From a virus (taxonomy: Duplodnaviria > Heunggongvirae > Uroviricota > Caudoviricetes): 64,000 nt of DNA. This document shows, one piece after another, positions 23,413-42,735 of the stretch. The notes beneath the pieces were generated by a model. That model did no database searches. It was not told the DNA's origin and worked only from the letters and a program-made list of their open reading frames with translations. A program made the translations under genes and the position numbers. Every line of letters begins with the position of its first letter. Within the stretch, counting starts at the first letter, position 1. Location: IMG/VR virus record IMGVR_UViG_2657245091_000008; one strand, written 5' to 3'.

Positions 23413-23413
23413 T

Positions 23414-24789: not shown

Positions 24790-25081
24790 CCTGCAACTTG
24801 CCGTTAAAGGTGAATACTTCGATGCCATGATTCGCGGAGAGAAAACGGAAGAGTATCGCCTGTGTAATGACTACTGGAATAAGCGAATTATGTTCCGGGA
24901 GTATGACCGCCTGATTATCACAAAGGGATATCCGAAGCGCGACGACTTCAGTCGCAGAATTGACGTCCCGTATAACGGATATGAAATAAAAACAATCACA
25001 CATCCCCACTTCGGCGATAAACCGGTAAAGGTGTTCGCGATAAAGGTAAAATTAACACGGAGTAATTATGTGGCGCGGTAA
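24782..25081 (+). CDS. ASCH-domain protein
   Basis: GTG start with GGAGG upstream; AVKGEYFDAMIRGEKTEEYR matches the ASCH GxKxxExR motif. Confidence 0.5.
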   Translation: MANLQLAVKGEYFDAMIRGEKTEEYRLCNDYWNKRIMFREYDRLIITKGYPKRDDFSRRIDVPYNGYEIKTITHPHFGDKPVKVFAIKVKLTRSNYVAR

Positions 25082-25361
25082 TAATCATGGCGGAAGCCAG
25101 ATGATACTTACCGAATATACGTTCGACCACAAAACCAATAAATCACGTTCAGTATATTTGCTTCGGCACAATAGCCGCGTAAGAAATACCGTGCTGGAGC
25201 AAAATCTGACCGTCGAAATGGATAATTTGGGAAACTTCAAGCCAACAATATCGCTTGATGATTTTCCGTGTGGTTTAAGCGAAAGAGAAGCAATGCTGAA
25301 ATTAGCAGAATGGTTACAAAGATTGAGCATTGCTATTGAAGATAACTGGATTCAACCATAA
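25068..25361 (+). CDS. hypothetical protein
   Basis: 97-aa ORF, coupled. Confidence 0.4.
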   Translation: MWRGNNHGGSQMILTEYTFDHKTNKSRSVYLLRHNSRVRNTVLEQNLTVEMDNLGNFKPTISLDDFPCGLSEREAMLKLAEWLQRLSIAIEDNWIQP

Positions 25362-25385
25362 TGAAAAACAGAAAGAAAGATTGCT

Positions 25386-25595
25386 ATGACAACATTTAGT
25401 AAATTCGCAGTAATTATGATTTTATTAATCCCCCTCACTGTTACAGCAGGGGAACAGCAACATTGCACAAAAGAGAATGAACACCCTTTCATCGTTATTC
25501 AATGCGATGACGGAACGGTGACTGTGGTTAATGTAAGAAATGACCGTGTAGCTGTTTGCCGTAAAGGCGAACCATGCAAGGAAATAAAACTATGA
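25386..25595 (+). CDS. hypothetical small secreted protein
   Basis: 69-aa ORF with signal-peptide-like N-terminus and 4 Cys. Confidence 0.4.
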   Translation: MTTFSKFAVIMILLIPLTVTAGEQQHCTKENEHPFIVIQCDDGTVTVVNVRNDRVAVCRKGEPCKEIKL

Positions 25596-26341
25596 CAAGA
25601 ATCACTAAAGAGCGTATTTCAGATATTATTTCCCGTATCGAAATGTATGGTCACGGTGCTGGATACACAGCAGATGAAGTATTGGAGCTTGCCAAAATAG
25701 CTTTAGCGCCTTGCAAGGATGGTAAAGCTATGACACTGATTGACTTGTTAGTGAAGGAATTATCTAAGGGGCGTGGATGGCCTGATGGAAAAGATTTTTG
25801 CCATCTATCCATTACGATGCCAGGTAGTAGTCGCGCTACGGTTCTTTTTGGTACGCGCCATAAAAATTACCAATCATCAAAGAATTATTCCATTGATGGC
25901 ATTATTTGCGATATCAGTGACCTTGATCGCAGTGCGTTTACATCGGTTGTCACTCGTGAACAGTATGAAGCAGCTCGCATAGCGTCTCAGAAAGTTAAGT
26001 CTGAAAGTAAGGCTTACAAGTTAGATTTTGAGCAATGGCTGGAACAGCAACGCGGGAAAATCGATGTGGACTGCGGTTGTGTGTCTGCGGAAACATTCAT
26101 GCACTGGTTGCGGGTAGCTTATGAGGCTGGCAACCATCCGGATTTTCCGGATAGTTCCCAACAATCGCCCAAGAAAAGCGTAAAAACCACTCTGGAAAGA
26201 GGCTATCTTGAGGCCGCATTAAAGATTAAGCCGGGCCATACGCTAGGCGTCATTGATGCCATGTTGGTTCATGAAATGGCTAAGGCTTTATTGCCACTGG
26301 TAGCAGATCAACATGAGGCGAGTCATGCCAACGAAAGCTGA
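25592..26341 (+). CDS. hypothetical protein
   Basis: Start at the ATG overlapping the upstream stop; about 249 aa. Confidence 0.45.
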   Translation: MTRITKERISDIISRIEMYGHGAGYTADEVLELAKIALAPCKDGKAMTLIDLLVKELSKGRGWPDGKDFCHLSITMPGSSRATVLFGTRHKNYQSSKNYSIDGIICDISDLDRSAFTSVVTREQYEAARIASQKVKSESKAYKLDFEQWLEQQRGKIDVDCGCVSAETFMHWLRVAYEAGNHPDFPDSSQQSPKKSVKTTLERGYLEAALKIKPGHTLGVIDAMLVHEMAKALLPLVADQHEASHANES

Positions 26342-26609
26342 ACTACAGACGCGTGTAGAGGAACTTGAAAAAGAGAACGCTGGCCTCAAAAAAATGCTGG
26401 CCCGGGCAGAAAGGGAGTTGTCCGGCAAACTTCTGCCAGAAGAACTGCCACCAGCAGATATACCCGAGCGAGTGTCCCGGTGGATGAAATCTTTTTGTTT
26501 GCCGTGGGAGACTTTTTGGTGCTACGACCATCGCAGATGGTGTGATGAGCTTGATAGCAGTTTCCCCTATTTTGCGGAAGGGAACTCTTGCCCTGAATGT
26601 AGGAGTTAA
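26313..26609 (+). CDS. small coiled-coil / zinc-ribbon protein (tandem paralogue A)
   Basis: 98 aa; C-terminal W..F.C.DH..W.DELDSSFPYF...CPEC shared with the next gene. Confidence 0.45.
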   Translation: MRRVMPTKAELQTRVEELEKENAGLKKMLARAERELSGKLLPEELPPADIPERVSRWMKSFCLPWETFWCYDHRRWCDELDSSFPYFAEGNSCPECRS

Positions 26610-26914
26610 TGATGACCGGCGAGCTTTATTTTAAAATGGCACGGGAGCGGCGTGTGCATCTGGATCGGATATTTCATCTCCAGAAGAGAGTAGAAGAACT
26701 GGAACGTCGTCTGAACTGTTATCCTGTTGATATGGTGTCTGCAATACCGCCGATTCCAATAGAAATGCAGATCCGCCTATGGATGGAAGAATATGGAATG
26801 CCGTGGGAGATATTTTTCTGCTTCGACCATAAACAGTGGGTAGATGAGCTGGATAATAGTTTCCCATATTTCACAGAGAACACATGCCCAGTATGCAGGA
26901 AGAACGGAATATGA
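26609..26914 (+). CDS. small coiled-coil / zinc-ribbon protein (tandem paralogue B)
   Basis: 101 aa; same C-terminal motif (WEIFFCFDHKQWVDELDNSFPYF...CPVC). Confidence 0.45.
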   Translation: MMTGELYFKMARERRVHLDRIFHLQKRVEELERRLNCYPVDMVSAIPPIPIEMQIRLWMEEYGMPWEIFFCFDHKQWVDELDNSFPYFTENTCPVCRKNGI

Positions 26915-27435
26915 CAAAATTTGGAAAGCTGGAAGCTCATTTGCTAACTCGTAACTACCGCCATGATATACACCCATATAGACAGTGGATCGATGAAAGC
27001 GAAGGAGTAGTTACATTCCCTCTATACAGGTTTGATGGGATGTTGGCTGGGTATCAGACATATAGACCAGGTGCTCCTAAGCAGCATAGCAATCCGAAGA
27101 TGGCCCGGTATTTCACGCGATCACACGGCAGACAGTTACTTTGGGGAACCTATCTTCCTTTAAAAGATGGCCCAATATGGATAACTGAGTCTATTTTTAA
27201 GAGCGCAGCTGTACACAACGCGGGCGGCAATTCGTGGGCGCTGTTAGGTTCAACTTTCTCCGCAGGATTACGCCGTCAACTTGCGATGCTGCCGTATGAC
27301 TTTCGTGTAATAGGTGACAATGATGCGGCTGGTGAATCACTTGTGAAGTCTTTCGGAAAAGGTTTTGTGGCCCCGGATCTTGACGAGCTACAACCACATG
27401 AAGTGTCTCATTTGATTTTTAGCCATAGCCAATAA
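26911..27435 (+). CDS. Toprim-domain protein
   Basis: Conserved ITES...VIGDNDAAG (Toprim Glu and DxD) arrangement; start overlaps the upstream stop. Confidence 0.45.
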   Translation: MTKFGKLEAHLLTRNYRHDIHPYRQWIDESEGVVTFPLYRFDGMLAGYQTYRPGAPKQHSNPKMARYFTRSHGRQLLWGTYLPLKDGPIWITESIFKSAAVHNAGGNSWALLGSTFSAGLRRQLAMLPYDFRVIGDNDAAGESLVKSFGKGFVAPDLDELQPHEVSHLIFSHSQ

Positions 27436-27643
27436 GCATCTCTCCCCTTTGAGGTCACAATTAGTGGCCTTAAACAATGTGTTTTCTACCTCGATTTAGC
27501 CTTTATTATCGTTTTGCATTTCTCTAATCCGGGCAACGAGGTTACGCTGATCCGTTGGTGATGAATAGTAGCAAAGCGCACAAAATCATCAGCGGTGGTT
27601 GATGTACGTAACGCGTTTGCACCAAAGGTGTCTCTTTAATGTA

Positions 27644-27663
27644 TACTGTATAAATGAACAGTA
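27644..27663 (+). promoter_or_regulatory. LexA (SOS) box
   Basis: TACTGTATAAATGAACAGTA fits CTGT-N8-ACAG exactly, 20 bp upstream of humD. Confidence 0.75.
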
Positions 27664-27682
27664 TCATTGAGGTGAAAACGCT

Positions 27683-28072
27683 ATGGGCTTCCCTTCTCCT
27701 GCGGCGGATTATGTTGAAAGCCGAATTTCTCTTGATCAGCAACTAATCAGGCATCCATCAGCAACCTACTTCATGCGGGCGGCAGACAGCCATCACCGTG
27801 AGGGAATATTGCAGGGTGCTTTGCTGGTGGTTGATTCTTCGCTTACTCCAGTTGATGGTTCGCTGCTTGTGTGCGCTATGGAGGGTGAATATCGCATAAA
27901 GAGATACCGAAAGTATCCGCGCCAGCACCTGGAGGATTTAAGCACCGGGAAGAAAGAGGCGTTACCAGTAGATGACGATGGTTACACGGGTAGTAATGCT
28001 GTTTTTGGTGTGATCACTCATGTCATCAATGATGCCCGAAGTGGGGAGTTTGATGATTGTCCGGTCATTTAA
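27683..28072 (+). CDS. humD: UmuD'-like protein (HumD)
   Basis: Begins MGFPSPAADYVE, i.e. at the position of the UmuD cleavage product; SOS box upstream; followed by phd-doc as in P1. Confidence 0.8.
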   Translation: MGFPSPAADYVESRISLDQQLIRHPSATYFMRAADSHHREGILQGALLVVDSSLTPVDGSLLVCAMEGEYRIKRYRKYPRQHLEDLSTGKKEALPVDDDGYTGSNAVFGVITHVINDARSGEFDDCPVI

Positions 28073-28144
28073 GCTGCAAAGTGCTGGTGCTTTATGCCTG
28101 TGAAGTTTATGATTGTGTACACATAACGAGTACACGAGGTGTTT

Positions 28145-28366
28145 ATGCAGTCCATTAACTTCCGTACCGCGCGCGGCAACCTTTCTGAATTGCTCAACAA
28201 TGTTGAAGCCGGGGAAGAGGTTGAAATCACCCGCAGAGGCCGTGAACCAGCAGTAATTGTCAGCAAGGCTACTTTCGAAGCCTACAAAAAGGCGGCGCTG
28301 GATGCTGAATTTGCATCCCTGTTTGACACCCTGGACTCCACCAACAAGGAACTGGTTAACCGATAA
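28145..28366 (+). CDS. phd: antitoxin Phd
   Basis: 73-aa product [39 protein letters not shown]...; GAGGTG Shine-Dalgarno; overlaps the doc start. Confidence 0.9.
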
Positions 28367-28746
28367 TGAGGCATATATCACCGGAAGAACTTATTGCGCT
28401 TCATGATGCGAATATAAGCCGCTACGGCGGCCTGCCGGGAATGTCAGATCCGGGTAGGGCAGAGGCCATTATCGGGAGAGTTCAGGCCAGAGTTGCCTAC
28501 GAAGAGATCACCGACCTTTTCGAAGTCTCCGCAACCTACCTGGTGGCTACTGCGAGAGGGCATATATTCAATGATGCCAATAAGCGTACCGCGCTAAACA
28601 GTGCGCTGCTATTTCTACGCCGTAACGGTATACAGGTATATGATTCTCCCGTGCTGGTGGAACTTGCGGTGGGGGCTGCAACTGGTGAAATCCCCGTATC
28701 TTCAGTAGCGGAAAAACTACGTGAACTATATGGTTCCAATATTTGA
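28366..28746 (+). CDS. doc: toxin Doc (Fic family)
   Basis: 126-aa product [22 protein letters not shown]..., recognisable as P1 Doc. Confidence 0.9.
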
Positions 28747-28781
28747 AAAGAAGCCCGCTCAACCAGGCGGGCTTCCTACTA

Positions 28782-29888
28782 TCACTCAATGATTTTTTCT
28801 GCTGTCAGCCAGCTAATTTCTTGCCTGTCTTTCGGCGGTTTTAGCATGTGGGCGTATTCAGCAACATTCTCCCACGGAATTGTTTTTGCCCACTCAACGA
28901 TAGCATTGTGATCTGCAGTGAAGAGTGGAATGGTGTGCGATTTCAACCACTCCAATGTTGTAACGCCATGTTTTTTGGCGTGGTGCTGTGCATGATGCCG
29001 GGCTATCACTCGTAATGGCATTATCCATTCACTACCATCAGGCATCGAAAAGCGCATTGTCTTCGGCATATCTGATTCAAGAACAGCCTCCCTAATACCA
29101 GGAAACTCACCAAGAACCATACGACGGTAGTAATCGCTGTTTTTACCACCATATATTTCTGCAATGTTATCAAGATAACCTTGAGAAATAATGGGGGTAT
29201 CTTCTGCGTTCAGCTTGATGGCTGTATAAATACCACATGGATTTTCTTCTGATTTAGCACGACCATGATGGGAATCGTAAAAGTGTCCATGCTCCTCCTC
29301 TGAAGGAGCGGACATTAAAAGTATACGTGAATCGTCACTTACTAACGATGCTCTTAACATGCTGAATAGCCGATCGCCAGCAAGAGCCGCCTCCGTAACA
29401 ATGATTAAAAGATGTTCAGCATAATATCCACCGAAACCTTCCTCATAATTTCGGTGATATGGCTTAATTTCGCAGCCCCAATATTCCCGGTAACGATGAT
29501 TGATGCCGTTTCCATCGACTTTAAAATATTCTCCCAGCAATGGGATTCTGTTACTGACTCTATCCCAATACGTACTTATGTATTGGATAACTTGCCTGCG
29601 ACAATTATAGAACTTTGGGGAAACAATAACCGTTTTAGACTCAGGCATCAGGATTGTATAAAGAATACTAATTATAGCGATAACCGTCTTTTGGCCTATC
29701 CCTTCAGGAGTGGTGACGCTGACTGCTGAACCTTTTTGTTGAATCGCCTCAACAATTAGCTTTTGCTGGTGGGTTAACTTAACACCCATCAACTCTTCTG
29801 CTGCTAATGCCCAGTCATGGCTATATTTGCTTACCAGCTCTCTCCACTCTGGTAATTCGGTGATGTTTTTAGGCGTCAGCATCAGCAT
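28782..29888 (-). CDS. terminase-large-subunit (PacB)-like ATPase paralogue
   Basis: Region GFGGYYAEHLLIIVTEAALAGDR...LLMSAPSEEEHGHFYDSHHGRAKSEENPCGIYTAIKLNAEDTP aligns by eye with the PacB core at 35223-36731; Walker-B-like DEAS is replaced by TEAA. Confidence 0.5.
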   Translation of the reverse strand: MLMLTPKNITELPEWRELVSKYSHDWALAAEELMGVKLTHQQKLIVEAIQQKGSAVSVTTPEGIGQKTVIAIISILYTILMPESKTVIVSPKFYNCRRQVIQYISTYWDRVSNRIPLLGEYFKVDGNGINHRYREYWGCEIKPYHRNYEEGFGGYYAEHLLIIVTEAALAGDRLFSMLRASLVSDDSRILLMSAPSEEEHGHFYDSHHGRAKSEENPCGIYTAIKLNAEDTPIISQGYLDNIAEIYGGKNSDYYRRMVLGEFPGIREAVLESDMPKTMRFSMPDGSEWIMPLRVIARHHAQHHAKKHGVTTLEWLKSHTIPLFTADHNAIVEWAKTIPWENVAEYAHMLKPPKDRQEISWLTAEKIIE

Positions 29889-30675
29889 CCTCCGCTACCT
29901 CTGCCTCCACATCTGCCGCGACTTCATCGGACTGTTCTTCTTTGGCCTGTTCTGCAATCGCCGCACGGCATTTGGCCCTTGCTGTGGCGATTGCTTCAGC
30001 ACGCACATCATCAGGAATCGTTGACGTGATATACATATCCAGTTCTTCGGCGCGGAACACTGTTTGGTCCAGATATTCGCGTAGCATCCAGGTAAATTCG
30101 AAATCACACGCGATAATCTCTGCGCTACCTTCTGCACCATTTGGGAAATGAATAAATGCCTGTTTAGCCAAACCGATAACACGACATGCGGTTGCCAAAA
30201 CAGCGACAACCAGATTTACATTTTCACACGCTACGGGCTGATTAACGCCGGAGATTACTCCATTTAACTGTCGGTTATATGGAAGGTAGTTTGAGATGCG
30301 TTCTACGCGCCATGTGCCAGTCAGGCTGCCATTTTTAAAGATAATTGGTGTAACGGATAGCCCAAGCTCGCGTATAAGTCGTTGCGCTATAGCAGGATCA
30401 TTAAACAGGTCTAATGCTACACATTCGAAAGACTGCGCAAGGGCAAACAGTTCTTCCAGAGAGTAGTCTTTGCCCCTGGCGGTGATGTAACGACGAACGC
30501 CGCTGTCTGCATCACTCCATATAGCTACGCCATGCTCTTCATTCAGTTCTTCATTAAAGCCGAGATACGTCATGATAGTGCGTTCAATCGTGTCAAACGG
30601 CAGTGACATGTCGGCGTTAACAGCCACCAGCAGGCCATTACGCAAGCGGTATTGAATTGTTTTGGTGCTTTCCAT
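29869..30675 (-). CDS. hypothetical protein with acidic C-terminal tail
   Basis: 268-aa ORF in the dre operon. Confidence 0.45.
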   Translation of the reverse strand: MESTKTIQYRLRNGLLVAVNADMSLPFDTIERTIMTYLGFNEELNEEHGVAIWSDADSGVRRYITARGKDYSLEELFALAQSFECVALDLFNDPAIAQRLIRELGLSVTPIIFKNGSLTGTWRVERISNYLPYNRQLNGVISGVNQPVACENVNLVVAVLATACRVIGLAKQAFIHFPNGAEGSAEIIACDFEFTWMLREYLDQTVFRAEELDMYITSTIPDDVRAEAIATARAKCRAAIAEQAKEEQSDEVAADVEAEVAEDADADA

Positions 30676-30681
30676 GTCAAA

Positions 30682-31338
30682 TTACTCCACTACAAACCAG
30701 TCACATGCCAGTAAATCAGCAACAGACGGCAACCAAACGTTGTCTATATTTTGCGCATCCTTCAATACAAAATGGTCGCCATAAGGAACCTGAATGTCGT
30801 GGAAATTGACGCACCCAGCTAGAACTAACCAGCAGCATTGCTTTTCGCCTTTCCACCCGCGTCGAGATACCTTTCTTCCTTCTTTCAACCACGTCAGCGC
30901 GACAGAAAAGTCGGCTGCTTCAAGGTCGATTTCTTCTTGTTGGGTAGTGATACCACCAGCAGAAATAGTTACGTCCCTGGCTGTAATGAATGTCACCCCA
31001 TTGTGACCTTCAATCCTGAGCGATACCCCATTTTCGAAGATGTCGTTAGTTCGACTAAAGCCATCTTTAAATTTCTTTTCTGATAAACAGGACAGATGAC
31101 CTTCTTCATCAACGACAAGATAGCCGCCAACTTGTGGTAGGTGTTTTTGCAAAAACATTGCATCAACATAGATTCTTACTCCTTTGGGTTCTGTGACCTC
31201 GATTTCACCACAATTAGGCATCACAGGAGTAATACCACCGATGTATTTGATATTCTTGATTTTCGATGCACTAACGTTTTTGTGAGCTTTGTATTTGGGA
31301 AGGAACTTAAAAAGCTCTTTCGTTGCCATGTTATTCAT
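30682..31338 (-). CDS. protein with C-terminal DUF2829 (Tad2-like) domain
   Basis: C-terminal FSVALTWLKEGRKVSRRGWKGEK matches the DUF2829 pattern A..LK.G.KV.R.GW.G. Confidence 0.45.
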   Translation of the reverse strand: MNNMATKELFKFLPKYKAHKNVSASKIKNIKYIGGITPVMPNCGEIEVTEPKGVRIYVDAMFLQKHLPQVGGYLVVDEEGHLSCLSEKKFKDGFSRTNDIFENGVSLRIEGHNGVTFITARDVTISAGGITTQQEEIDLEAADFSVALTWLKEGRKVSRRGWKGEKQCCWLVLAGCVNFHDIQVPYGDHFVLKDAQNIDNVWLPSVADLLACDWFVVE

Positions 31339-31352
31339 AGTCTTTTCTCTGC

Positions 31353-31847
31353 TTATAACTTTTCGTACTGAAGCGGTGAACGCTTAATTTCAAAGTGGCC
31401 TTCCGATGTGCTACCAAAGCCACCAGCACCACGTTCCGTTTCGTTGAGTTCCTCAACCTCGACTAGTGAGACTTGTTCAACACGCTCAAAAATGCCTTGC
31501 ATGACAGCCATTCCAGGCTTGAGACAAACGCCTTCCCCGCCGGGATCAGTAATCAGTTTTGCCATGATTTCACCGCGATAATCGGAGTCGATAATTCCTA
31601 CGCAGTTAGCCAGGCGAGTATGTTTTTTGCAGCCCAATCCGGATCGCGGATAGAGTTTCAGACACCAGCCGGGCGGGATCTCCATAGCCAGTCCGGTATA
31701 CACCCACCAGCTTGAGGAAATTGCACCATTGCTATCGACGCATGGTTTTATTTCAACAGCCTCAAAATCCATCGCCGCCGATCCGGAGGTGGCATAAGCT
31801 GGAAGTTTTGCTGCCGGATGTAGGCGTTTCACTTTTACGTAAATCAT
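31353..31847 (-). CDS. dut: dUTPase
   Basis: dUTPase motifs GIIDSDYRGE (motif III) and RGAGGFGSTSEG (motif V). Confidence 0.7.
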   Translation of the reverse strand: MIYVKVKRLHPAAKLPAYATSGSAAMDFEAVEIKPCVDSNGAISSSWWVYTGLAMEIPPGWCLKLYPRSGLGCKKHTRLANCVGIIDSDYRGEIMAKLITDPGGEGVCLKPGMAVMQGIFERVEQVSLVEVEELNETERGAGGFGSTSEGHFEIKRSPLQYEKL

Positions 31848-32320
31848 TGTTTTTTAGCTCTCTGCGTGAAGGTGTAAACCCGACGTTTGATATGTGGAAC
31901 GGTAGGAACAGGAAGACAGGAACTTTCAATAACTCCTTGCTCCTCCAGCGATCGCACCGCCCGCAAGAACTGCGACGTGTCGCCGCCAAACTGGCGGGCA
32001 TAGGTGCTGCCGTTATGAAGTATTTGAGCTATTACCCGAGCTTTTGTCTGGCTGACACGATATGCGAATAGCCGCACGGCCTCTTCTGGCGCAATCGCTA
32101 ACTGATAGCCTTTCCCGGCACGGTGTCGAATGAATCCATGCGCCAGTAGGTTTTTGAGTTCGTTACGAGTGCGAACAGATCCGTAATCCAGGAAGTGTGG
32201 ATTGATAACGACTGGCTTAAACCATTCCGTAGGTGCTTTAGCTAATAGAGCTAACAGCTTCCCGGATAATTCTGGATAGGAAGACGGGTAACAATTCAGA
32301 GATGGGTAATAAGTTTTCAC
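31844..32320 (-). CDS. hypothetical protein
   Basis: 158-aa ORF, coupled. Confidence 0.45.
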   Translation of the reverse strand: MKTYYPSLNCYPSSYPELSGKLLALLAKAPTEWFKPVVINPHFLDYGSVRTRNELKNLLAHGFIRHRAGKGYQLAIAPEEAVRLFAYRVSQTKARVIAQILHNGSTYARQFGGDTSQFLRAVRSLEEQGVIESSCLPVPTVPHIKRRVYTFTQRAKKQ

Positions 32321-32661
32321 CGACGCCCCCTTGCAGGATATCGACCTGCATTAGTATCCGGTGCAATAAAGCCGGTAGTGGGGCGAGTGAAAGCGAGATT
32401 AATCTTCTCGACCATAGTGCGATAATTTTCCTGATAGTGGGCCAGGAGTTTTTCGGCGGCAATGATGGTTACTTTCCGGACGTAGCTTTCTGCTTCCTCC
32501 AGATTTCGCCAGTTTTTTTCGAGGGTAAACACAGGGACGGCCTCAAGCCCGGTCATGATGCCGAACACAACGACAGCATGACTGTTCTTAACACCAGCGG
32601 CGAAGGTTACGGTGTAACCATCCACCTTGAAGCGTCTTGATTCCGTGATTTGACTCTGCAA
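32317..32661 (-). CDS. hypothetical protein
   Basis: 114-aa ORF; operator-like site directly upstream. Confidence 0.45.
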   Translation of the reverse strand: MQSQITESRRFKVDGYTVTFAAGVKNSHAVVVFGIMTGLEAVPVFTLEKNWRNLEEAESYVRKVTIIAAEKLLAHYQENYRTMVEKINLAFTRPTTGFIAPDTNAGRYPARGRR

Positions 32662-32706
32662 AGCACCCTCCTAAATAGGCGAGGGTACTTTACAGCAAAG
32701 GCGTTA

Positions 32707-32726
32707 ATCTAAAAAGATGTGTTAGA
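32707..32726. promoter_or_regulatory. operator-like site
   Basis: GTGTTAGAAATTTAAT between the recombinase stop and the next gene start. Confidence 0.45.
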
Positions 32727-32734
32727 AATTTAAT

Positions 32735-33763
32735 TTACGAATCCATCAGGCGGCTATTAGCCCCCACAGACACGCCGCCACGGCGAAGATACCGCATAAG
32801 TGTTTCCGGTTTCTTCCAGGTTCCTTCCTGCATGATCTCCACCATAGACACCTGCTTTTCAGCCATATCAATAGCGGCCCCGACGCGTGCACTATGCCCG
32901 GTCCACGTCCGGTATCTTCCTTTGTTTGGCGTAGCATCTCTTTTATTCAGCAACACCCAGGCGTCGCTGAATATTTTCTCCATTGCAGGTGCAGTAAGGG
33001 GTGTTGTCGTGATCCTGGCCTTATTGCTACGGTGTATCGGCGGGAACAGCACTGCGTCAGGATGTTCGCGAAGCCCGGAAACATCCAGCCAGTCATTCAG
33101 CACAGCGGTAGTGCGACGGGAAAGCACCTTATCAAGCCCGGCGGCGGTCGTTATTGTCTTCGTGTGTGAAATATGTAGCGTGACAGTGTCACCTGTTTGA
33201 TCCAGATCTCCTACACGAATACGCGAGATTTCCGACATACGCATCAGCGTATTGTATGCAACAAAGAGAAAAGCCCGGTTGCGCAGGTCCACCAGCCGTT
33301 CTGACCTGGACAACAGGACGTCGAGCAGTTTCAGATCGTCCCACCGAAGCGGTATAGCCTGGCCTGTTCGTTCGCCTTTTTCAGTTGCCGCTTCGCGCCG
33401 GATGCGCCGCATAGCCAGAGAAACACTTTTATCATCCGAAAGTGGCGGAAGACCACAATGCGAAAGCAGCATGTTCAGCATGGCGTAGTGCTTATCAATG
33501 GTGGTCGAAGCCAGATCGGCATCATGCAGCTGAAGAAAATACTCGCGGGCCATTTCTGGTGAGATCGGAAACCAGGCAAGCTGGCGAGCGTGACACCAGC
33601 GCGCCCAGGAATGAAACACCAACCGGAGGTCGCGCAGAGTATTCGGCGCATAAGCCCCCTGGTCATTCATGAACCGCATAAAGTTTTCTGCGGCTTCCTG
33701 GTACTCTTTGCCAATGTTGCGCAGAAAACCACCGGAACTGCCAGAGATAATTAATTCACTCAT
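32735..33763 (-). CDS. dre: Cre-family tyrosine recombinase (Dre-like)
   Basis: 342 aa; blocks aligning with Cre by eye (AFLFVAYNTLMRMSEISRIRVGDL; TWTGHSARVGAAIDMA with catalytic-region His/Arg, C-terminal Tyr region); a rox-type site about 150 bp upstream. Confidence 0.8.
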   Translation of the reverse strand: MSELIISGSSGGFLRNIGKEYQEAAENFMRFMNDQGAYAPNTLRDLRLVFHSWARWCHARQLAWFPISPEMAREYFLQLHDADLASTTIDKHYAMLNMLLSHCGLPPLSDDKSVSLAMRRIRREAATEKGERTGQAIPLRWDDLKLLDVLLSRSERLVDLRNRAFLFVAYNTLMRMSEISRIRVGDLDQTGDTVTLHISHTKTITTAAGLDKVLSRRTTAVLNDWLDVSGLREHPDAVLFPPIHRSNKARITTTPLTAPAMEKIFSDAWVLLNKRDATPNKGRYRTWTGHSARVGAAIDMAEKQVSMVEIMQEGTWKKPETLMRYLRRGGVSVGANSRLMDS

Positions 33764-33915
33764 GAAACTATTTGACCTCTATATACAGATGACGCTACGC
33801 GAAAAATATAAAAATGACAGGGTAGCTATAAGTTAATTTTCAAAATACAAGCCTTTGATTCGAGGCACGTATTTTCAGTGATGTCAACACTGTTCATCTA
33901 CACATGATTATAGCC

Positions 33916-33947
33916 TAACTTTAAATAATGCCAATTATTTAAAGTTA
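33916..33947. other. rox-like recombination target site (14-bp inverted repeats, 4-bp spacer)
   Basis: TAACTTTAAATAAT-GCCA-ATTATTTAAAGTTA, a perfect inverted repeat; arms begin TAACTT like loxP arms; matches the published rox site as I recall it. Confidence 0.75.
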
Positions 33948-34044
33948 CAGAATGGCGATTTTTTTTAATCCATCATAGATTGATTTTGACCAGTAACACG
34001 TTGCCTTCATGGTCTTTAATTTGCGAAGTGTGGTTTATACAGTT

Positions 34045-34145
34045 GGTTTTCTAAAATTGATGACAAAAAATCACAGTTCGATCCTTTACTCACTCTGTTA
34101 TTCGACATAAATTTGTCATAGTAATTTTATGTTAGAAAACTAAAT
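34045..34145. promoter_or_regulatory. two operator-like sites in the promoter of the candidate repressor gene
   Basis: GGTTTTCTAAAATTGA (34045-34060) and ATGTTAGAAAACTAAAT (34129-34145), the second only 12 bp before the start codon. Confidence 0.5.
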
Positions 34146-34157
34146 CGAGTAGGAATA

Positions 34158-35195
34158 ATGAGTAAGAAGTCGATCGAGAAAGAGTACAAACGGTTCCTGC
34201 AAACCGCTGAACGGTGGAAAGAGCTGGTGGTCGCAAACTCTGTTTTCCATGATACCAGTTATGCTGGCGAGGAATTCCGCCATGTTGCATTAACGCATGA
34301 CCAAAACATATTAGAAGAAGCTGAAAAATGTCTTGCTGAATGGAAAGCCTTCGTTGACATGTGCCGCGATGCCGACGGCAAAGCGTCGAACATTGTTGAG
34401 TCTGTATATTCTCCGATCCCATTCATCATTGAGGACACCAATCAAAGCACGCATGTTGTTGTGCAAAGCGCTACAACAACACGTACATTTACACGTGAAC
34501 AATTGCTCAAAAAATACGACAAAATCATAAAGAAAAGCCTGAAAAATAGGGTTTTTTCTCAAATTGTAGGTGCTCTTGAAGAAGAACAGCGCTTCTTTGA
34601 AGCTGAGCCTGAAGGCGAGATCTACCGGGCGCGTAAAGAGGCATATACAGATGTTGTGCTGACAACAAACATCGAAGGCAGCAATGCCCTTTCTCGCTTT
34701 AGAGTTGGCGCACATGGCGCATTGGTTTTCGCAAGACTACCGAAGACAACGATCCCCGTTGTCAATAATGTTGGTGAACGCCGGAGCATTACAATTTATT
34801 CAGGCGTCGAATCGGTACCTTGCAGCCTTCTCGGCGATTTTAACTTATATCGTGTTCGTGACCTGGAAAAACACCAGCCAAGCTACGTTGCGAAGTCGTA
34901 CATCTTAAGGAACATCGATATTCGCAATGAAAGCCTTAAGCAGAAATCCGCTAAGATGCTGGAGGATGCCGATCCGGCTATTCGCCATATCATTGAGCGT
35001 AAGATACGTACATCACGTGAAGCAATGGCAAGGCTGGATAAAATGGATCTGGAATTGTTAGACGTAATGATGGCCTCTGGAGACGACCTGACCGGCATTA
35101 AACTGAATGAAGCTCGTAAAAAATACGGCAAAGCAATCGAAGAACGTTACGGATACACATTCCCCCAAACGCAGTACGCCGCGAAGCTCTGGTAA
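34158..35195 (+). CDS. candidate master (C1-analogous) repressor
   Basis: 345-aa ORF at the c1 position (convergent with pacB, beside the rox site) with two operator-like motifs just upstream; no similarity to P1 C1 that I can recognise by eye. Confidence 0.35.
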   Translation: MSKKSIEKEYKRFLQTAERWKELVVANSVFHDTSYAGEEFRHVALTHDQNILEEAEKCLAEWKAFVDMCRDADGKASNIVESVYSPIPFIIEDTNQSTHVVVQSATTTRTFTREQLLKKYDKIIKKSLKNRVFSQIVGALEEEQRFFEAEPEGEIYRARKEAYTDVVLTTNIEGSNALSRFRVGAHGALVFARLPKTTIPVVNNVGERRSITIYSGVESVPCSLLGDFNLYRVRDLEKHQPSYVAKSYILRNIDIRNESLKQKSAKMLEDADPAIRHIIERKIRTSREAMARLDKMDLELLDVMMASGDDLTGIKLNEARKKYGKAIEERYGYTFPQTQYAAKLW

Positions 35196-35203
35196 TCACA
35201 ACC

Positions 35204-35224
35204 GGCCCCGCATCGCGGGGCTTT
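35204..35224. terminator. bidirectional terminator hairpin between convergent genes
   Basis: CCCCGC-atc-GCGGGG hairpin flanked by T-rich sequence. Confidence 0.5.
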
Positions 35225-36731
35225 ATATATCCAGATCTGGCATTTCGATATCCGCCAGAACCTGATCTCGGAAAGTTGCCATTTCGGCACCAATATCTTC
35301 ATTAGCAGGCACATAGTCCACCAGCATAGTGAAGCAGTAGGTATCCCATCGGTCAGGCGATTTGATGTTTAGCTTTTGCCGCATGTGCTCTTTGCGCATC
35401 ATCGCCATTTTCCCTTCCTCATTCAGTAAAAAGGGGATTTTTGACGCTTGCTCTGCCGTTTTAGGGTCACTGTCTATCCGCATACGCCCTGACTTTATGG
35501 CATCACGCGCCATAATATTTGCGTAGGCACGCTGATTAACAAATCGCTCCCTGTCTTTGTTCGCAAACATGGGTTTTCCCCACCGAATACGTACCGGGTT
35601 CGCACCACGACGCACCAACTGCGCACACGTATCAGAACCAAAACCATCGGCATCAACCGCGATTGTTATATTCGGGTATTTTTCCGGCGTACATTCGTTA
35701 TATATAAAGTCAGCAAAGGCCAATGGGTCCATAGTGCCAGGCATCTCCATTACCTTAAAGTTAACAACGCGCCGCTTATCCCTGTGACCAGATACCTTGC
35801 AGATGTTGAGGACCGACTTATCTCGCCCATTACCAACGTCAGCCGTTGCCACCCATCCCCAGTTTTTCTCCAACAACACCTTGCGGCGAGCAGCGCGATC
35901 GCATTCATCACGACCAAGCAAATAGCCGTTAATTTCTCGTGGGAACTGACCAAGCACCTTGACCATATACTCAATAGAATCGCGCCCACCATATTCCAGA
36001 AGCTTCTGCTTGATGAATTGTGGTGTGACGAACGGTGATTCTTCCGAGTTAAGAACAATTGCTGTCCAGATCCCTTTCGGGTTGTCTGGGGTTTTTGCTT
36101 GAGAATGGTGCGAATCGTAGAAATAACCACTTGGCCTTGTTGGCTGGGATAGCATCAACATCCGGTTATCTTCTTCAGTAAGAGCACCGGTCATTACGCC
36201 GATCGCCTTATCAGATATACCAGATGCTTCATCCAGAATTAGAAGCAAATGTGCCGCGTGTTCCCCCGCCAGCGCTTCTTCGTTGCCGAGTCGATAACCT
36301 TTGCAGAGAACTTCCCAAATCCCCTTACGGGAGCGCTCATAAAACATGGTGTCAGAGAGGACAAAATAGGTCTGCAACCACCCATGACGCTTAACTGCAT
36401 TCGCCCAATACTGTTTAACGTATTTGAATACGCCTGTTTTTACCTGGCCTATCTTGTTAGCAACAATGATGACACGGGCATCGGGGAACAGGATCATAAA
36501 AATCAACAGCAACATCGCGGTAAGGGACGACTTCCCCGTTCCGTGTCCGGACGTGACGGTCGTCCTACTCCCCGTTTCCTGCACTGACTGAATGATCTGC
36601 TGCTGCTGGTGGGAGGGGAACATCCCAAAAATATCGACAACAGCCTGGGTAAAGTTGTAGCGGTATTTGATTACCATATCGCGCCAGCGTGGATCGCTGG
36701 TGACGCATTTAATCTTGCGCCCGCCAGCCAT
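35223..36731 (-). CDS. pacB: terminase large subunit PacB
   Basis: 502 aa; Walker A TSGHGTGKSS, Walker B LLLILDEASG, C-terminal nuclease-like region; directly after pacA. Confidence 0.8.
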   Translation of the reverse strand: MAGGRKIKCVTSDPRWRDMVIKYRYNFTQAVVDIFGMFPSHQQQQIIQSVQETGSRTTVTSGHGTGKSSLTAMLLLIFMILFPDARVIIVANKIGQVKTGVFKYVKQYWANAVKRHGWLQTYFVLSDTMFYERSRKGIWEVLCKGYRLGNEEALAGEHAAHLLLILDEASGISDKAIGVMTGALTEEDNRMLMLSQPTRPSGYFYDSHHSQAKTPDNPKGIWTAIVLNSEESPFVTPQFIKQKLLEYGGRDSIEYMVKVLGQFPREINGYLLGRDECDRAARRKVLLEKNWGWVATADVGNGRDKSVLNICKVSGHRDKRRVVNFKVMEMPGTMDPLAFADFIYNECTPEKYPNITIAVDADGFGSDTCAQLVRRGANPVRIRWGKPMFANKDRERFVNQRAYANIMARDAIKSGRMRIDSDPKTAEQASKIPFLLNEEGKMAMMRKEHMRQKLNIKSPDRWDTYCFTMLVDYVPANEDIGAEMATFRDQVLADIEMPDLDI

Positions 36732-38095
36732 TAATCATCCTCCGGCGGTTCTATCGCGATATCATCATCTCCGGCGTCATACCCTGCATCAGATGCATCA
36801 TAATCACCGTAAATTTCAGCCGTTGCCGAAGGGTCAATATCCAGCTCTTCGTCGTTGGCCTCGAATTCTCCAGCTTTACGCTCGCCATTGCGGTCGTAAT
36901 CTCCGCACCCCAATTCTTCAACAATGGTTGCCACATCCGCCCGGCGCTCTGCCAGCCATTGCGGATGGTTAGCCTGAAGCGTTGCAAACTCCCTTGCCTC
37001 TTTGTCCAGCTGTTCATCATCAACATCATTGACGTCAGAAACAGGTGGTTCGAGAAGAGTGATAGCTTTCGCCGCGCGCGCCGCGAGGATAGCCGGGACG
37101 CTGACCCCCTGGCGCTCGATGTATTCAGCAACACCGATATCATCCAGTTCCTCGCGCTCACGCATACGTATAGCGGCGGCGATAACTCTGGCAGCGCGTG
37201 CGTCAGCGCCAATGCGATATTCAATCTCTTTGCCACGCTGTTCGGCCTGTAGGCGTGCTAATTCGAGTTTTTCTCTGGCCTCAGCCTCTTTGAATGCTTG
37301 CTGGCGAGCGCTCTGACGAAGCTTTTCATCCCCCTGTCGCAGCTTTTGTTCGGACTGATATATAGCTGCCAACCTACTGATAAAATCATTCATGTAGTAG
37401 GCCGCGTCACTGATTAGACCGAGAAGGCGCTGCCCAGGGTGCATTCCTTCTGGCTCTTTATCGCCCAAGGCGTCTATTTCCGCCTGTAGACGTTCGGCCT
37501 CCTGATCAACAATGCTTTGATACTGAAGTGCGCGCTCTTGCGCCATTTGAATTGCTAACCGCAGGTGTTCTTCTGCGCCGTTCTTCATCATATCGCGAGC
37601 CACATTCGTAGTGGGCAATGTGGCACGCTGCACAGCACCGCCAGGGATCATTGCTGAAGATCCCTCAATTTTTGGGGCGCTTTTATCTTCTTCGGGGATC
37701 ATTTTCGCCATTTTTTCGCGCAATGATCTCCTGACAGATTCTTTTATCTCATTGTTATTATTGGTATTACTTTCATGATCCGAAGTTTTCTTTCTTGGCA
37801 TACTTCGGAAAGAACCTGCACCCTGCGAATTGTCAATTTCTGTAAATTTTGTTTTTTCTGCACCCTCTTCCAGCTTTTTTGTTGCTCTTCCCGCCCGTTT
37901 TTTTTCAGGTGATTTGGTGCTTTTTTTTGTTGTCTTTACCTGCGACCGCACCTCATTTTTTTTCATATTGAGATGCTTTCTGGCTGTATTGAAGCTAAGA
38001 CCATGCTCCTCACAGTATTCCTTTACAGTGATCCCTTTTTCTTCACGCAACGCTATAAAGCGGGCGCGGTGCTCCTCCCAATTAACCAGACTCAT
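36731..38095 (-). CDS. pacA: terminase small subunit PacA
   Basis: 454 aa; N-terminal HTH-like region (MSLVNWEEHRARFIALREEKGITVKEYCEEHGLS), acidic C-terminus; 1-bp overlap with pacB. Confidence 0.7.
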   Translation of the reverse strand: MSLVNWEEHRARFIALREEKGITVKEYCEEHGLSFNTARKHLNMKKNEVRSQVKTTKKSTKSPEKKRAGRATKKLEEGAEKTKFTEIDNSQGAGSFRSMPRKKTSDHESNTNNNNEIKESVRRSLREKMAKMIPEEDKSAPKIEGSSAMIPGGAVQRATLPTTNVARDMMKNGAEEHLRLAIQMAQERALQYQSIVDQEAERLQAEIDALGDKEPEGMHPGQRLLGLISDAAYYMNDFISRLAAIYQSEQKLRQGDEKLRQSARQQAFKEAEAREKLELARLQAEQRGKEIEYRIGADARAARVIAAAIRMREREELDDIGVAEYIERQGVSVPAILAARAAKAITLLEPPVSDVNDVDDEQLDKEAREFATLQANHPQWLAERRADVATIVEELGCGDYDRNGERKAGEFEANDEELDIDPSATAEIYGDYDASDAGYDAGDDDIAIEPPEDD

Positions 38096-38484
38096 AAAGC
38101 AACACCACGCTTTTTAACGGCGGCATTCCACAGCTTATTCGCCATGTCCACCAGCTCTCGTTGCTCTTTTCGCGCCTGTTCGACTGATTTCCTGCTACAG
38201 TTTTTAACCAGTAAGCTACCGTATTCAGGCGTGCGCCCGCGCACCTTGAACTGATATCCGTTCAGACCATGTAGCCAGTATTTTCGTGGATACACACGAT
38301 CATCCAGCTCACAGATTGCCCTGCTTGAACGAACAAAATGACGAATGATGTTAGTTACACTTACTCGTGAAACATGGAGATGAGGGTATTTTTCTTTGGC
38401 GAGAGTGGTAATTTCAGTGACTGTCAGATAGCAGTCAGCCCTGATCATGATATCCGCAATTTCTGCGCTGCTGATTTGTTCCAT
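38092..38484 (-). CDS. lpa: late promoter activator Lpa
   Basis: 130-aa ORF immediately upstream of pacA with an operator-like site in its promoter, as for P1 lpa. Confidence 0.55.
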   Translation of the reverse strand: MEQISSAEIADIMIRADCYLTVTEITTLAKEKYPHLHVSRVSVTNIIRHFVRSSRAICELDDRVYPRKYWLHGLNGYQFKVRGRTPEYGSLLVKNCSRKSVEQARKEQRELVDMANKLWNAAVKKRGVAL

Positions 38485-38560
38485 TAATCCCCCGGGCAGG
38501 AAATGACCGAGGGGATGATAATGAGAATGTTAAAACTGTATAGACTGGTAAAAAGATGAT

Positions 38561-38577
38561 TGTATTAGAAAATTAAT
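38561..38577. promoter_or_regulatory. operator-like site upstream of lpa
   Basis: TGTATTAGAAAATTAAT about 80 bp upstream of the lpa start. Confidence 0.45.
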
Positions 38578-38592
38578 ATTAAACACCTAATG

Positions 38593-38985
38593 CTACCAGC
38601 GAGACAAACGAACAACATGTTTCACTTTTGCGATCCACTTTCCGCGATAACTATTGATTACGGCCTGTGCCAGCTTCAAATTGGCTTCAAAATCAGCCTT
38701 ACTACCATCAGACTCCACCAGCATTCCTCCATCTATTTCTGGTAAACATAGATAATCCTGCTCAACCTGCAGCGGCATTGATGGCTCTCTGAATGGCGTT
38801 ACTTGCTCTGCTTTCCAGCGAAATCTAACCCTCATCCCCCTGGTGGTCATTACTAGATAGCCTGTTATAGTGCTTTTATGGCCCACATCAGTACGCGTGG
38901 CATTGCATGACACGATCTTACAGTTAGCGATAGACCACTCCATATTGGTGGCCTGTTGAGTGCTTAATTTGGTAGTCCCGTACAT
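38593..38985 (-). CDS. hypothetical protein
   Basis: 130-aa ORF. Confidence 0.45.
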   Translation of the reverse strand: MYGTTKLSTQQATNMEWSIANCKIVSCNATRTDVGHKSTITGYLVMTTRGMRVRFRWKAEQVTPFREPSMPLQVEQDYLCLPEIDGGMLVESDGSKADFEANLKLAQAVINSYRGKWIAKVKHVVRLSRW

Positions 38986-39560
38986 CAGAAAGCCTCCCAG
39001 TCAGTCGCGATAATATCCACACCAGTTGCAAACCAGTCTGTCTGCGCCTGTAAATCCCCATTCATCATTACCAGGCGAGGCATCACCATCACATCGCACC
39101 CTTCCACAATATCGAATGCCTCTTCCGGCAAGAATTCGAAGAGCTTTTCTTTGCTGCCAATGCTGCCACGGAACATCGATATATAGCTCCCTTTAGGCCA
39201 TGATGTCCGCCGGGCATCAAGCCCTTTCATCATCCAGTAAAAAGCCGAGGAAAAAGGGATATTCTTTTTGCCAATGATTACATTATTCGCTTCTGTGTAC
39301 TTCAGGAACTTAACTAACCTTACCATTGACTCGGATAACGCAACGTATGGCTCATGATTGATTGCTGACACGCTTACACCGTGCAATCCAACGCTTACCA
39401 CTGTCATATCGCCGCTCTGTGCGGTTTCGATATTGACGCCTTTGCGAACTAATGAGGCGTAAAGTTCCTCTCGCTTTTGGGTCCAGCGTTCCCGCTTCCC
39501 TATGAAGTCACTCAAAATGAGATCTTCTTCTGCATATGCGTTATCGTTCGCCATTAACAT
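38985..39560 (-). CDS. hypothetical protein with DUF2829-like segment
   Basis: 191 aa; FSSAFYWMMKGLDARRTSWPKGSYI resembles the DUF2829 core. Confidence 0.4.
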   Translation of the reverse strand: MLMANDNAYAEEDLILSDFIGKRERWTQKREELYASLVRKGVNIETAQSGDMTVVSVGLHGVSVSAINHEPYVALSESMVRLVKFLKYTEANNVIIGKKNIPFSSAFYWMMKGLDARRTSWPKGSYISMFRGSIGSKEKLFEFLPEEAFDIVEGCDVMVMPRLVMMNGDLQAQTDWFATGVDIIATDWEAF

Positions 39561-40014
39561 AACGTCTCCTTTTTTACGCGCGCGACTATCCCCCGGAAGT
39601 ACCGGTAGTGATGTCGTAACTTCGTATTAATTAAGGGGTACAGCCTGAGCGGCTATATGATGAATTGAAAGGAGTTGTGGCGGTGGTGCCTCCACCTGCC
39701 AGGTTAGCCACTCCTGGCGACGTCACTTATCAGAACGTAGTGAATGAAAATGGCTTCGTCACGAGCGCATAGCCGCAATTACCACAACGGAAACGGCGCT
39801 CGCATTAATTAAACGCCTTTTCCTGTTGTGCGCCGTACTCTTCCGGCTGTCACACCGAATCGCCAGGATGGTGAGTCCCTGAGTCCGCTATCCCTCCAGC
39901 GGTGACTTGCACATTCCGGCTACCTGATGTGCCCATGCAGTGTTAGTAAGGTACCTAACAGCTACACCAGACCGCTAACGACGCATGTGCCATACGTCGT
40001 GTTACAACCAAATA

Positions 40015-40090
40015 TGGTGGCCCCTACCGGATTTGAACCGGTGACCGTGCGATTATGAGTCGCCTGCTCTAACCACTGAGCTAAAGGGCC
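40015..40090 (-). tRNA. tRNA-Ile (anticodon CAU, ileX-like) or tRNA-Met
   Basis: Minus-strand GGCCCTTTAGCTCAGTGGTTAGAGCAGGCGACTCATAATCGC...GGTTCAAATCC...GGGGCCACCA; cloverleaf with CAU anticodon and encoded CCA; very close to E. coli ileX as I recall it. Confidence 0.8.
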
Positions 40091-40227
40091 AGATTACTGT
40101 TAATTCCGCTTACGCTTTTTGCCAGAACCGCGTAAGGCTTTTGCCGCTTGCTCGACCCCATATGCAACCACCAGCAAAAATAAAAATGTCCAACCAGGGT
40201 TCTTATCGGCAAACGCCCAAAAATTCA

Positions 40228-40551
40228 TCACTTACAGCCACCTTGCATTTCCTCGGATAATTCATTGATTTTAGTGCTCAATAAGTAATCAAAGTAAAGA
40301 TAAAACACAAAAGTAACGATAGTGCTTAAAGTGTCTGAAATTGCGTATTTCAGCTCAGGAAGCATGACAAAGCAGACAAATAGCGGAAGAAATAACTGCA
40401 CTATGCACAGGCTCTCCTTCCACAACCATCTATATCTGAAGTCTGACAACAAAAACTCCATTGCTTGAAACTTTATTAGATTGCGGTGCCTGGTGCCTCC
40501 AGGTGACGTTAACCAGTTAACAATTAACGCCGGGATGTTTGACTTAACCAC
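40228..40551 (-). CDS. possible small membrane protein between tRNA genes
   Basis: 107-aa AT-rich ORF with hydrophobic stretches; no clear ribosome-binding site. Confidence 0.25.
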   Translation of the reverse strand: MVKSNIPALIVNWLTSPGGTRHRNLIKFQAMEFLLSDFRYRWLWKESLCIVQLFLPLFVCFVMLPELKYAISDTLSTIVTFVFYLYFDYLLSTKINELSEEMQGGCK

Positions 40552-40711
40552 TAAGGAGGATTGTTTTAACTGTTCCGCGTGCGCTTAGCCGCATTCACCG
40601 CAATGGTAAGAGCACTTGGCTGGCTGGGCGGCGATGACGCCTGTACGCATTTGGTGATCCGGTTCTGCTTCCGGCATTCGCTTAATTAGCCAAATACTCT
40701 TAACGTTGCGC

Positions 40712-40798
40712 TGGCGGAGAGTAATGGAATCGAACCATCATCGCTTGCGCAATGGGACGGTTTTCAAGACCGCTTGAGCACCATGCTCCCTACTCTCC
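40712..40798 (-). tRNA. class II tRNA, anticodon UGA (tRNA-Ser-like)
   Basis: 87 nt; acceptor GGAGAGT/ACTCTCC, anticodon loop CUUGAAA, variable arm with GCAA tetraloop, T loop TTCGATT, discriminator G, encoded CCA. Confidence 0.65.
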
Positions 40799-41170
40799 CG
40801 TTATTGTGGCGACCGGTGCTGATCTCCGGCTTGCGGTTATTTCAGACTCTCACGGGCGTTTAATTGCCCCGCCGAACAGCTCTTTTCCGCAATAGCTGCA
40901 ATGTCTTTCGCGCATCAGCCTGCGCATTCACCACAATGTTGAGAACACTGGTTGTCACGCTGCAACGCAACATTTATTCGTAGATTGGGATATGACCCCG
41001 TTACGCCAGTGTTCTCAACGTTGTAGTGCCGGTTACGGTTCCGGCCAGGCCTCTTCCTCAACGGGGTGTTCTCCATACGGACTACCGTTTATTGGTCGTT
41101 CCTGCGGTTTATGTTGTGAAGCCAGATGCTTATCTTCTGGTTGCTTCAAAGAGCTGCACTTCCTCACAAC

Positions 41171-41244
41171 GGTAAGGGTACTTCGTAGGGATTCGAACCC
41201 TCTGCCAAGCTCGGCGATCTCCGACGTCGCAAAATACCCTTACC
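41171..41244 (-). other. tRNA-like fragment / degenerate tRNA
   Basis: Contains a T-arm-like GGGTTCGAATCCC and a 10-bp terminal inverted repeat (GGTAAGGGTA...TACCCTTACC) but no foldable anticodon or D arm. Confidence 0.3.
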
Positions 41245-41252
41245 TGTTGTGC

Positions 41253-41328
41253 TGGTGCCGATTAACGGACTCGAACCGCTGACCATTCGCTTACAAAGCG
41301 ACTGCTCTACCAACTGAGCTAAATCGGC
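41253..41328 (-). tRNA. tRNA-Thr (anticodon UGU)
   Basis: GCCGATTTAGCTCAGTTGGTAGAGCAGTCGCTTTGTAAGCGAATGGTCAGCGGTTCGAGTCCGTTAATCGGCACCA on the minus strand. Confidence 0.85.
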
Positions 41329-41332
41329 AATT

Positions 41333-41419
41333 TGGTGGGGAGTGATGGAGTCGAACCACCCGAGTCGCAATGACAGTAGATTTACAGTCTACCCCGCTAC
41401 CCCTACGGACTAACTCCCC
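41333..41419 (-). tRNA. tRNA-Tyr (anticodon GUA)
   Basis: 87-nt class II tRNA; anticodon arm GTAGACTGTAAATCTAC, T loop GGTTCGACTCC, discriminator A, CCA. Confidence 0.8.
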
Positions 41420-41424
41420 TAAAG

Positions 41425-41501
41425 TGGCGATGGTGGGTGGATTCGAACCACCGACCGACAGCTTAGAAGGCTGCTGCTCTATCCTACTGAGCTACACCAT
41501 C
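41425..41501 (-). tRNA. tRNA-Arg (anticodon UCU, rare AGA/AGG decoder)
   Basis: GATGGTGTAGCTCAGTAGGATAGAGCAGCAGCCTTCTAAGCTGTCGGTCGGTGGTTCGAATCCACCCACCATCGCCA. Confidence 0.8.
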
Positions 41502-42735
41502 ACTTGCCGGGTACGTCTCCGGCGAGGGCTTCCACCTCCGTATGCTTTTCGGCGCACCGCGCCCTGGCTGCAATTCGGTAACAGGGGATGCATAACCCTG
41601 GCTTCCAGCGTGATTAGCGCCTTCAGCATGACGGGATATACCCGTTACAAGAAATTCCCCCAGGATGCCATTAAGCAATGGCTGTTACGCGGGAGGGACG
41701 TAACAGGTAAGGGCGCTGACCAGAAAGACCTGACCCTTCTCATTCATCTGGTTAATCACACCAGCGCCCTTGCCTGTTATGCCTCCCCGTTCCCTAATAC
41801 ACAGACGGGGACACTCTGCGGTCGATTTTTTGACGGGGGACGACTCATACCCCGTGGCGTCTGGCTTCTTAGGCCGCTACCATCATCAGATCATCGTTTG
41901 CATTTACTTTAATGGTCGGTTTCTAAACCGCCGCAAAGTCGCTAACCATGACGAAAACCCTAAAAAAGCCCACCCGAAGATGGGCAAATACGCTACATCT
42001 CACACAAGAAAGAAGCCGACTGCCTGAGCTGGATTCACTTTCAAATGCCCGCAGAAAGGGATCACAAGTCGGCTTCTTTCTTGATGCGGCACTCTCTCCG
42101 CCCGTCACCGCTCTGTCTCGGTTGTCGCGTTTGCCACGCCAGCCGTAACGAGGTTTAAAGTCTTTGCACGTTTCCATCACTCGACTGCCGTCTGTGGCTG
42201 TTCGTTGCAGCGGGGGTGCCTCCCCCTGGGGATATCCCCGGCCTTACCCCATTCTTTCAAGACACAATGCAAGGCCACATCCGCATAGGTGCATTACCGC
42301 AACATTAAGGAGACTCAGGGCAAAAGGTAACCGCCACAAAAATCCCTATGCCTCCTTAATGTTGAAGATGTGCATTGATGATTAGATGCAGCATGTACTG
42401 TTACTCTCTGCCGGACCATCATCAATGAACACCTTAAAAAGACCTTCCGTGGCTCAACATGTATTGTCGTTTACTCCGCAAAGTGCTCTCTCTGAAACCA
42501 CTTTCCGCACTAAACCTGTTGAACTTTGGTCAGCTCGGTGCCAAAGCGTGCTTTTGCTTTACTATACTTTTCTAACACTTTAATTTGTTAACAGCCGGTG
42601 GGCAAACAATAACCAATAAGTGACTATCAAGCCCAGCAAGCGAAACGTGGGTGCCGCCCACCAGCAAGGAAAATTCTATGTTAAGTTATCATCACAATCA
42701 ATACATTCGAATTGTGATTTTAGATTTCTAACACA

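Follow-up and report, generated by a model that had tools for sequence, protein, structure and literature searches.

The locus examined here carries a Cre-family tyrosine recombinase gene with an inverted repeat upstream of it, which raises the question of which site-specific recombination system the two form and what kind of element carries them. It lies in a stretch of viral DNA of 64,000 nucleotides (IMG/VR record IMGVR_UViG_2657245091_000008), the whole of which is called the window below. A preliminary description, made from the letters of the sequence, had assigned the pair to the Dre/rox system, and we found this assignment to be correct but ordinary, as the feature is an already known system. 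Dre/rox of Escherichia phage D6 was reportedly described by Sauer and McDermott in 2004, and it is a standard genome-engineering tool alongside Cre/loxP. Taking the evidence jointly, we are nearly certain that the locus is the Dre/rox module of a D6-like Escherichia coli phage-plasmid, with a Cre-like mechanism and P1-like roles.

The recombinase gene, dre, occupies positions 32735..33763 on the minus strand, as an open reading frame of 342 amino acids with its ATG start at 33763. BLASTP comparison with D6 Dre (AAV84949.1, from AY753669; also ASR76376.1) showed 342 identities in 342 residues and no gaps. The catalytic domain was recognized by Pfam as Phage_integrase (PF00589) with an E-value of 5.3e-17 (62.6 bits vs a cut-off of 27.1), and the N-terminal SAM-like domain gave a weak Pfam match. 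It had been stated that the recombinase aligns with Cre over its conserved catalytic blocks, and this was borne out: Cre chains were the best PDB matches of the protein in a phmmer search (E = 5e-69, residues 22-341), and full-length identity to P1 Cre amounts to 40.2%. The six residues of the R-K-H-R-W/H-Y set, R175, K202, H290, R293, W316 and Y325, were all found in the protein and were invariant over 38 aligned relatives, Cre among these. They agree with the catalytic residues given for Dre in the literature, which are R175, H290, R293, W316 and Y325 (PMC4777119), K202 being additional to that list.

The target site, rox, is located at 33916..33947 on the plus strand, where the 32-bp sequence TAACTTTAAATAATGCCAATTATTTAAAGTTA is present exactly once in the window. 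It consists of the arm TAACTTTAAATAAT, the core GCCA and the arm ATTATTTAAAGTTA. The site had been called a perfect 32-bp palindrome, which holds for the 14-bp arms, as these are perfect inverted repeats, but not for the 4-bp core, which is asymmetric (its reverse complement is TGGC). This is the 14-4-14 layout known for rox, in which 14-bp inverted repeats flank an asymmetric 4-bp spacer (PMC4777119). All 32 of the 32 positions are identical to those of the misc_recomb feature annotated in AY753669 as rox for Dre recombinase, and the site equals the wild-type roxP oligonucleotide as printed in PMC4777119, 5'-TAACTTTAAATAATGCCAATTATTTAAAGTTA-3'. The proposal that the site corresponds to D6 rox was therefore confirmed by the comparison with published rox. 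The preliminary description had named a low protein identity to Dre and a published rox sequence different from this site as the outcomes that would speak against the assignment; with 342/342 identities in the protein and 32/32 in the site, neither was found.

The site position also matches the rox arrangement, just upstream of dre and between dre and c1, in the order pacA-pacB-c1-rox-dre. The distance from rox to the dre ATG, given earlier as 150 bp, was measured as exactly 152 bp, and the range 32735..33947 covers the gene together with the site. On the other side, 210 bp separate rox from the c1 ATG at 34158, so that rox is placed inside a dre-c1 intergenic region of 394 bp. No second copy of rox was found in the 64-kb window at up to 3 mismatches, and none occurred in 100 shuffles. 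Orphan rox half-sites, which were sought at up to 2 mismatches as a sign of an invertible or excisable segment, were found nowhere else in the window. A single copy is expected of a plasmid prophage, and a recombination product is for that reason invisible in the sequence itself.

Comparisons at the nucleotide level further showed how strongly the gene and its site are kept. Between the window dre and D6 dre there are 28 nucleotide differences, 28 synonymous and 0 non-synonymous, with 26 at third-position and 2 at first-position codon sites. The dre leader, which extends from rox to the ATG (33764..33915, minus strand) and contains a Shine-Dalgarno-like AGAGG 9-13 nt before the ATG, is 96.7% identical to that of D6, with an equal length of 152 bp. 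Against the 32/32 identity of rox, its flanks differ from D6 at 5 of these 152 bp and, toward c1, at 8 of 210 bp. Judged from these alignments, dre is under strict purifying selection, and the site is kept too while its flanks diverge.

Because both partners are identical to an experimentally tested pair, the window Dre would be expected to recombine two rox sites, and not loxP. Experiments in E. coli and mammalian cells have shown recombination by this pair (PMC4777119, PMC3553980, PMC4957104). Dre was found by experiment to act on rox and to be inactive on vox (PMC3553980), and Dre recombination of rox has been shown again (PMC4957104). From the homology to Cre and the conserved catalytic residues we infer the chemical mechanism, in which one Dre monomer would bind each 14-bp rox arm, and two rox sites with four Dre monomers would form a tetrameric synapse. 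Tyr325 would then cut one pair of strands to give a 3'-phosphotyrosyl link, strand exchange would lead to a Holliday junction, and a second pair of cleavages would resolve the junction. Neither an accessory protein nor an energy source should be required. The asymmetric core GCCA would fix the orientation of the site and with it the choice between excision and inversion. The layout of loxP is 13-8-13 (34 bp) vs 14-4-14 (32 bp) for rox, and the functional crossover region of rox has been argued to include the first base of each arm and to be probably nearer to the loxP length (PMC4777119).

We also found a predicted sigma-70 promoter directed toward dre that overlaps the site (33907..33934, minus strand; consensus match 11/12). 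It consists of a -35 element TTGGCA (33934..33929), a spacer of 16 nt and a -10 element TATAAT (33912..33907). The -35 element comprises the whole 4-bp core with one arm base on either side, namely the last base (T) of one rox arm and the first base (A) of the other. The spacer corresponds to the rox arm nearer to dre and 2 further nt, and TATAAT is located just outside rox. A consensus scan of 32600..34200 returned one promoter-like site, which is this one on the dre strand, and no other match of 11/12 or better was found in the 64-kb window when both strands were scanned. TATAAT is retained in 35 of the 37 aligned relatives, and the neighbouring columns vary. It is conceivable, though in our view rather doubtful, that rox doubles as a part of the dre promoter, in which case Dre bound at rox would repress its own transcription. 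If true, this would be a built-in negative feedback that is absent from the P1 cre/lox arrangement, and natural core variants would alter recombination compatibility and dre expression alike. No description of a promoter within rox or of Dre autoregulation was found in the literature searched, the original 2004 account lying outside it.

The same features would accord with a reading in which the inverted repeat is mainly an operator or promoter element of a divergent dre/c1 control region and its likeness to a recombination site is secondary, as the promoter is near-consensus, with its -35 in the site core and its -10 just outside, and as the site is included in the dre-c1 intergenic region. 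We consider this very unlikely. The same 32 bp, taken out of their context, suffice for Dre-dependent recombination on plasmids and in mammalian cells (PMC4777119, PMC4957104), so a regulatory role would add to recombination and not replace it. Moreover, both arms are retained in relatives whose -35 element is weakened by core changes (TGGGGA, TTGGAG and TTAGCA).

To place the module in its element, the window was compared with D6 and P1 in collection searches with three window chunks. The D6 genome (MF356679) has 91,159 bp and its coordinate origin lies within rox. The window is collinear with it across the record origin at 95.5-98.6% identity: 1..24598 corresponds to D6 61156..84324 (95.5%), 33932..50000 to D6 1..16349 (98.6%), and 50001..64000 to D6 16350..31432 (97.1%). 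The coverage of the three chunks by D6 was 79%, 62% (plus a second place) and 100%, vs 3-12% per chunk by P1 records, and loxP was absent from the window at up to 3 mismatches, its half-site having been checked against the P1 record. The view that the element is D6-like rather than P1 proper was thereby upheld. That the open reading frame is instead P1 Cre or some variant of it that uses a lox-type site, in a P1/P7 prophage, would agree with Cre topping the matches among solved structures and with window patches that match P1 at 93-96% identity, but it was rejected as next to impossible, because the 40.2% identity to Cre stands against 100% to Dre, loxP is missing, the P1 matches are patchy compared with the 62-100% coverage by D6, and Dre/rox and Cre/loxP are handled as distinct systems in Vika/vox-type assays and used as separate, orthogonal tools (PMC3553980).

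The D6-like assignment of the element was further examined with the dre segment. In a megablast of 32600..34160 against the phage collection, phage D6 was the sole match at 97% identity, and the matched D6 records carry the annotations "dre: tyrosine recombinase" and "region of crossover (rox) site for Dre recombinase". With a DNA identity of 97% in this segment, the window is distinct from the D6 isolate. The segment, 1.56 kb in length, was present on 144 plasmids, most of them non-mobilizable, 86-97 kb in size and from E. coli, Salmonella and Shigella. Its places in complete E. coli genomes number 127, of which 124 were on plasmids. The nearest record was NZ_CP031917.1, a plasmid of about 95 kb from E. 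coli O45:H2 FWSEC0003, with 99.7% identity over window positions 22001..47000. Plasmid prophages of the D6 type have been recognized as a group (PMC6799933). By these sequence comparisons, the element is a D6-like phage-plasmid of E. coli, and neither D6 itself nor P1. The value of the result is one of annotation, as the window can confidently be labelled as a D6-like phage-plasmid with a wild-type and presumably fully active Dre/rox.

The gene context shows parallels with P1 as well as differences from it. The order pacB, c1, rox, dre and orf2 is the D6 order (AY753669, MF356679), with matching orientation, and the P1 order pacA-pacB-c1-lox-cre is mirrored by pacA-pacB-c1-rox-dre in the window and D6. 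The divergent neighbour of rox is the prophage repressor gene c1 (34158..35195, plus strand), called phage repressor protein C1 in the AY753669 and MF356679 annotations; it is 99.6% identical to D6 c1 at the nucleotide level and belongs to the context, outside the recombination machinery. It is followed, likewise as context, by the terminase subunit gene pacB (35223..36731, minus strand), with 99.2% nucleotide identity to D6 pacB. Dre shares fold family and catalytic residues with P1 Cre, and in both systems the site lies upstream of the recombinase gene, by the c1 immunity region and the pac genes. In P1, however, cra and three mapped cre promoters are located between lox and cre, the promoters being downstream of lox, and the cre ATG is at 436 from the lox centre, compared with the 152 bp between rox and the dre ATG. 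Unlike P1, the window has no cra, and its predicted promoter overlaps rox.

The likeness to Cre/loxP extends to a simple two-arm site without accessory factors and, presumably, to the same roles in cyclization and dimer resolution. P1 Cre/lox serves the cyclization of terminally redundant injected DNA and the resolution of plasmid-prophage dimers. By analogy, Dre/rox most likely does for the D6-like phage what Cre/lox does for P1. It would circularize terminally redundant phage DNA after injection, and it would resolve dimers of the prophage, a low-copy plasmid, into separate copies ready for partition.

The module was also compared with its relatives. In IMG/VR, 36 loci with Dre relatives were found, 35 of which were aligned (the partial L112 was omitted), and their protein identities to Dre were 100, 99, 94, 89-90, 70 and 55-56%; a protein 100% identical to Dre is encoded by many IMG/VR contigs. 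For the variability of columns, 34 of the aligned sequences were used, those reaching 89% protein identity or more, the window and D6 counted in. Of the 32 rox columns, 4 vary, compared with 65 of 72 in the neighbouring flank toward c1 and 70 of 152 in the dre leader. Relatives with as little as 70% protein identity still have the rox site, and the flanks diverge.

Several natural site variants were observed among the 37 sequences. The wild-type site TAACTTTAAATAATGCCAATTATTTAAAGTTA (in window orientation) was found in 23 of them, with proteins 94-100% identical to Dre. A second form, TAACTTTAAATAATGCCAATTATCTAAAGTTA, with one base changed in the c1-proximal arm, was found in 9 sequences with 89.5-100% protein identity, and in each locus it is located about 152-183 nt upstream of the gene start. 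Its carriers are L081, L085, L087, L094-L096, L099, L106 and L108, some of which have a 100% identical Dre. Three further forms were each found once: TAACTTTAAATAATCCCCATTATTTAAAGTTA, with the core CCCC, in L097 (protein 99.4%); TAACTTTAAATAACTCCAATTATCTAAAGTTA, with one core base and one base per arm changed, in L107 (89.5%); and TAACTTTAAATAATGCTAATTATTTAAAGTTA, with the core GCTA, in L111 (69.9%). The form TAACTTTATATAACTGACATTATATAAAGTTA, with a symmetric change in both arms and a different centre, was found in L113 and L114, whose proteins are about 56% identical to Dre. For recombinase engineers, the rox arm and core variants paired with an identical or near-identical Dre may be minor points of interest, as may the strict purifying selection on Dre and the promoter predicted to overlap rox; existing knowledge of the system is unchanged by any of these.

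No Dre was found in one-genome-per-species representatives, where 74 relatives at 41-47% identity (L005-L078) were found instead. These relatives come from Pantoea, Mixta, Rahnella, Erwinia, Chimaeribacter and others, and they are often located on large plasmids or contigs, at times two per genome. Panto, a Cre-like recombinase of Pantoea sp. aB, shares 52% identity with Dre; its site, pox, has an inverted repeat one nucleotide apart from that of rox, and Panto and Dre each recombine rox and pox alike (PMC4957104). The sites of L113 and L114 carry the arm TAACTTTATATAA, a pattern that agrees with the account of pox in PMC4957104. L113 and L114, together with the 41-47% relatives from Pantoea, Mixta, Rahnella and Erwinia, probably belong near Panto/pox. 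The window protein, in contrast, is Dre itself and not of the Panto type, and the arms and core of the window site are those of rox.

Some further observations concern the regions adjacent to the module. In the pacA region (36731..38600), no cluster of TGATCA/G hexamers in the style of P1 pac was visible; a single TGATCA is located at 37503, and two further hexamers lie beyond 38290. Going by these motifs, the pac site of the D6 type seems to differ from P1 pac.

Between rox and the c1 leader, at about 33948..34080, a stretch of 130-170 bp is swapped for unrelated sequence in many relatives. At least three versions of this replacement were observed, with rox and the c1 leader retained on either side. 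A Dre-mediated exchange between phage-plasmids was considered as the cause of the divergence at the c1-side edge of rox, and it was not adopted because the sequences are similar again some 130-170 bp beyond that edge, at the c1 leader. The divergence by rox is a variable island and not a one-sided mosaic junction, and this stretch may be an immunity-control island.

At lower window coordinates, the dUTPase region (31353..31847) is only 74% identical to the older D6 immC record when the two are compared without gaps, and its neighbours are 99% identical. The low value could reflect an indel, another allele, or a frame difference in that older record.
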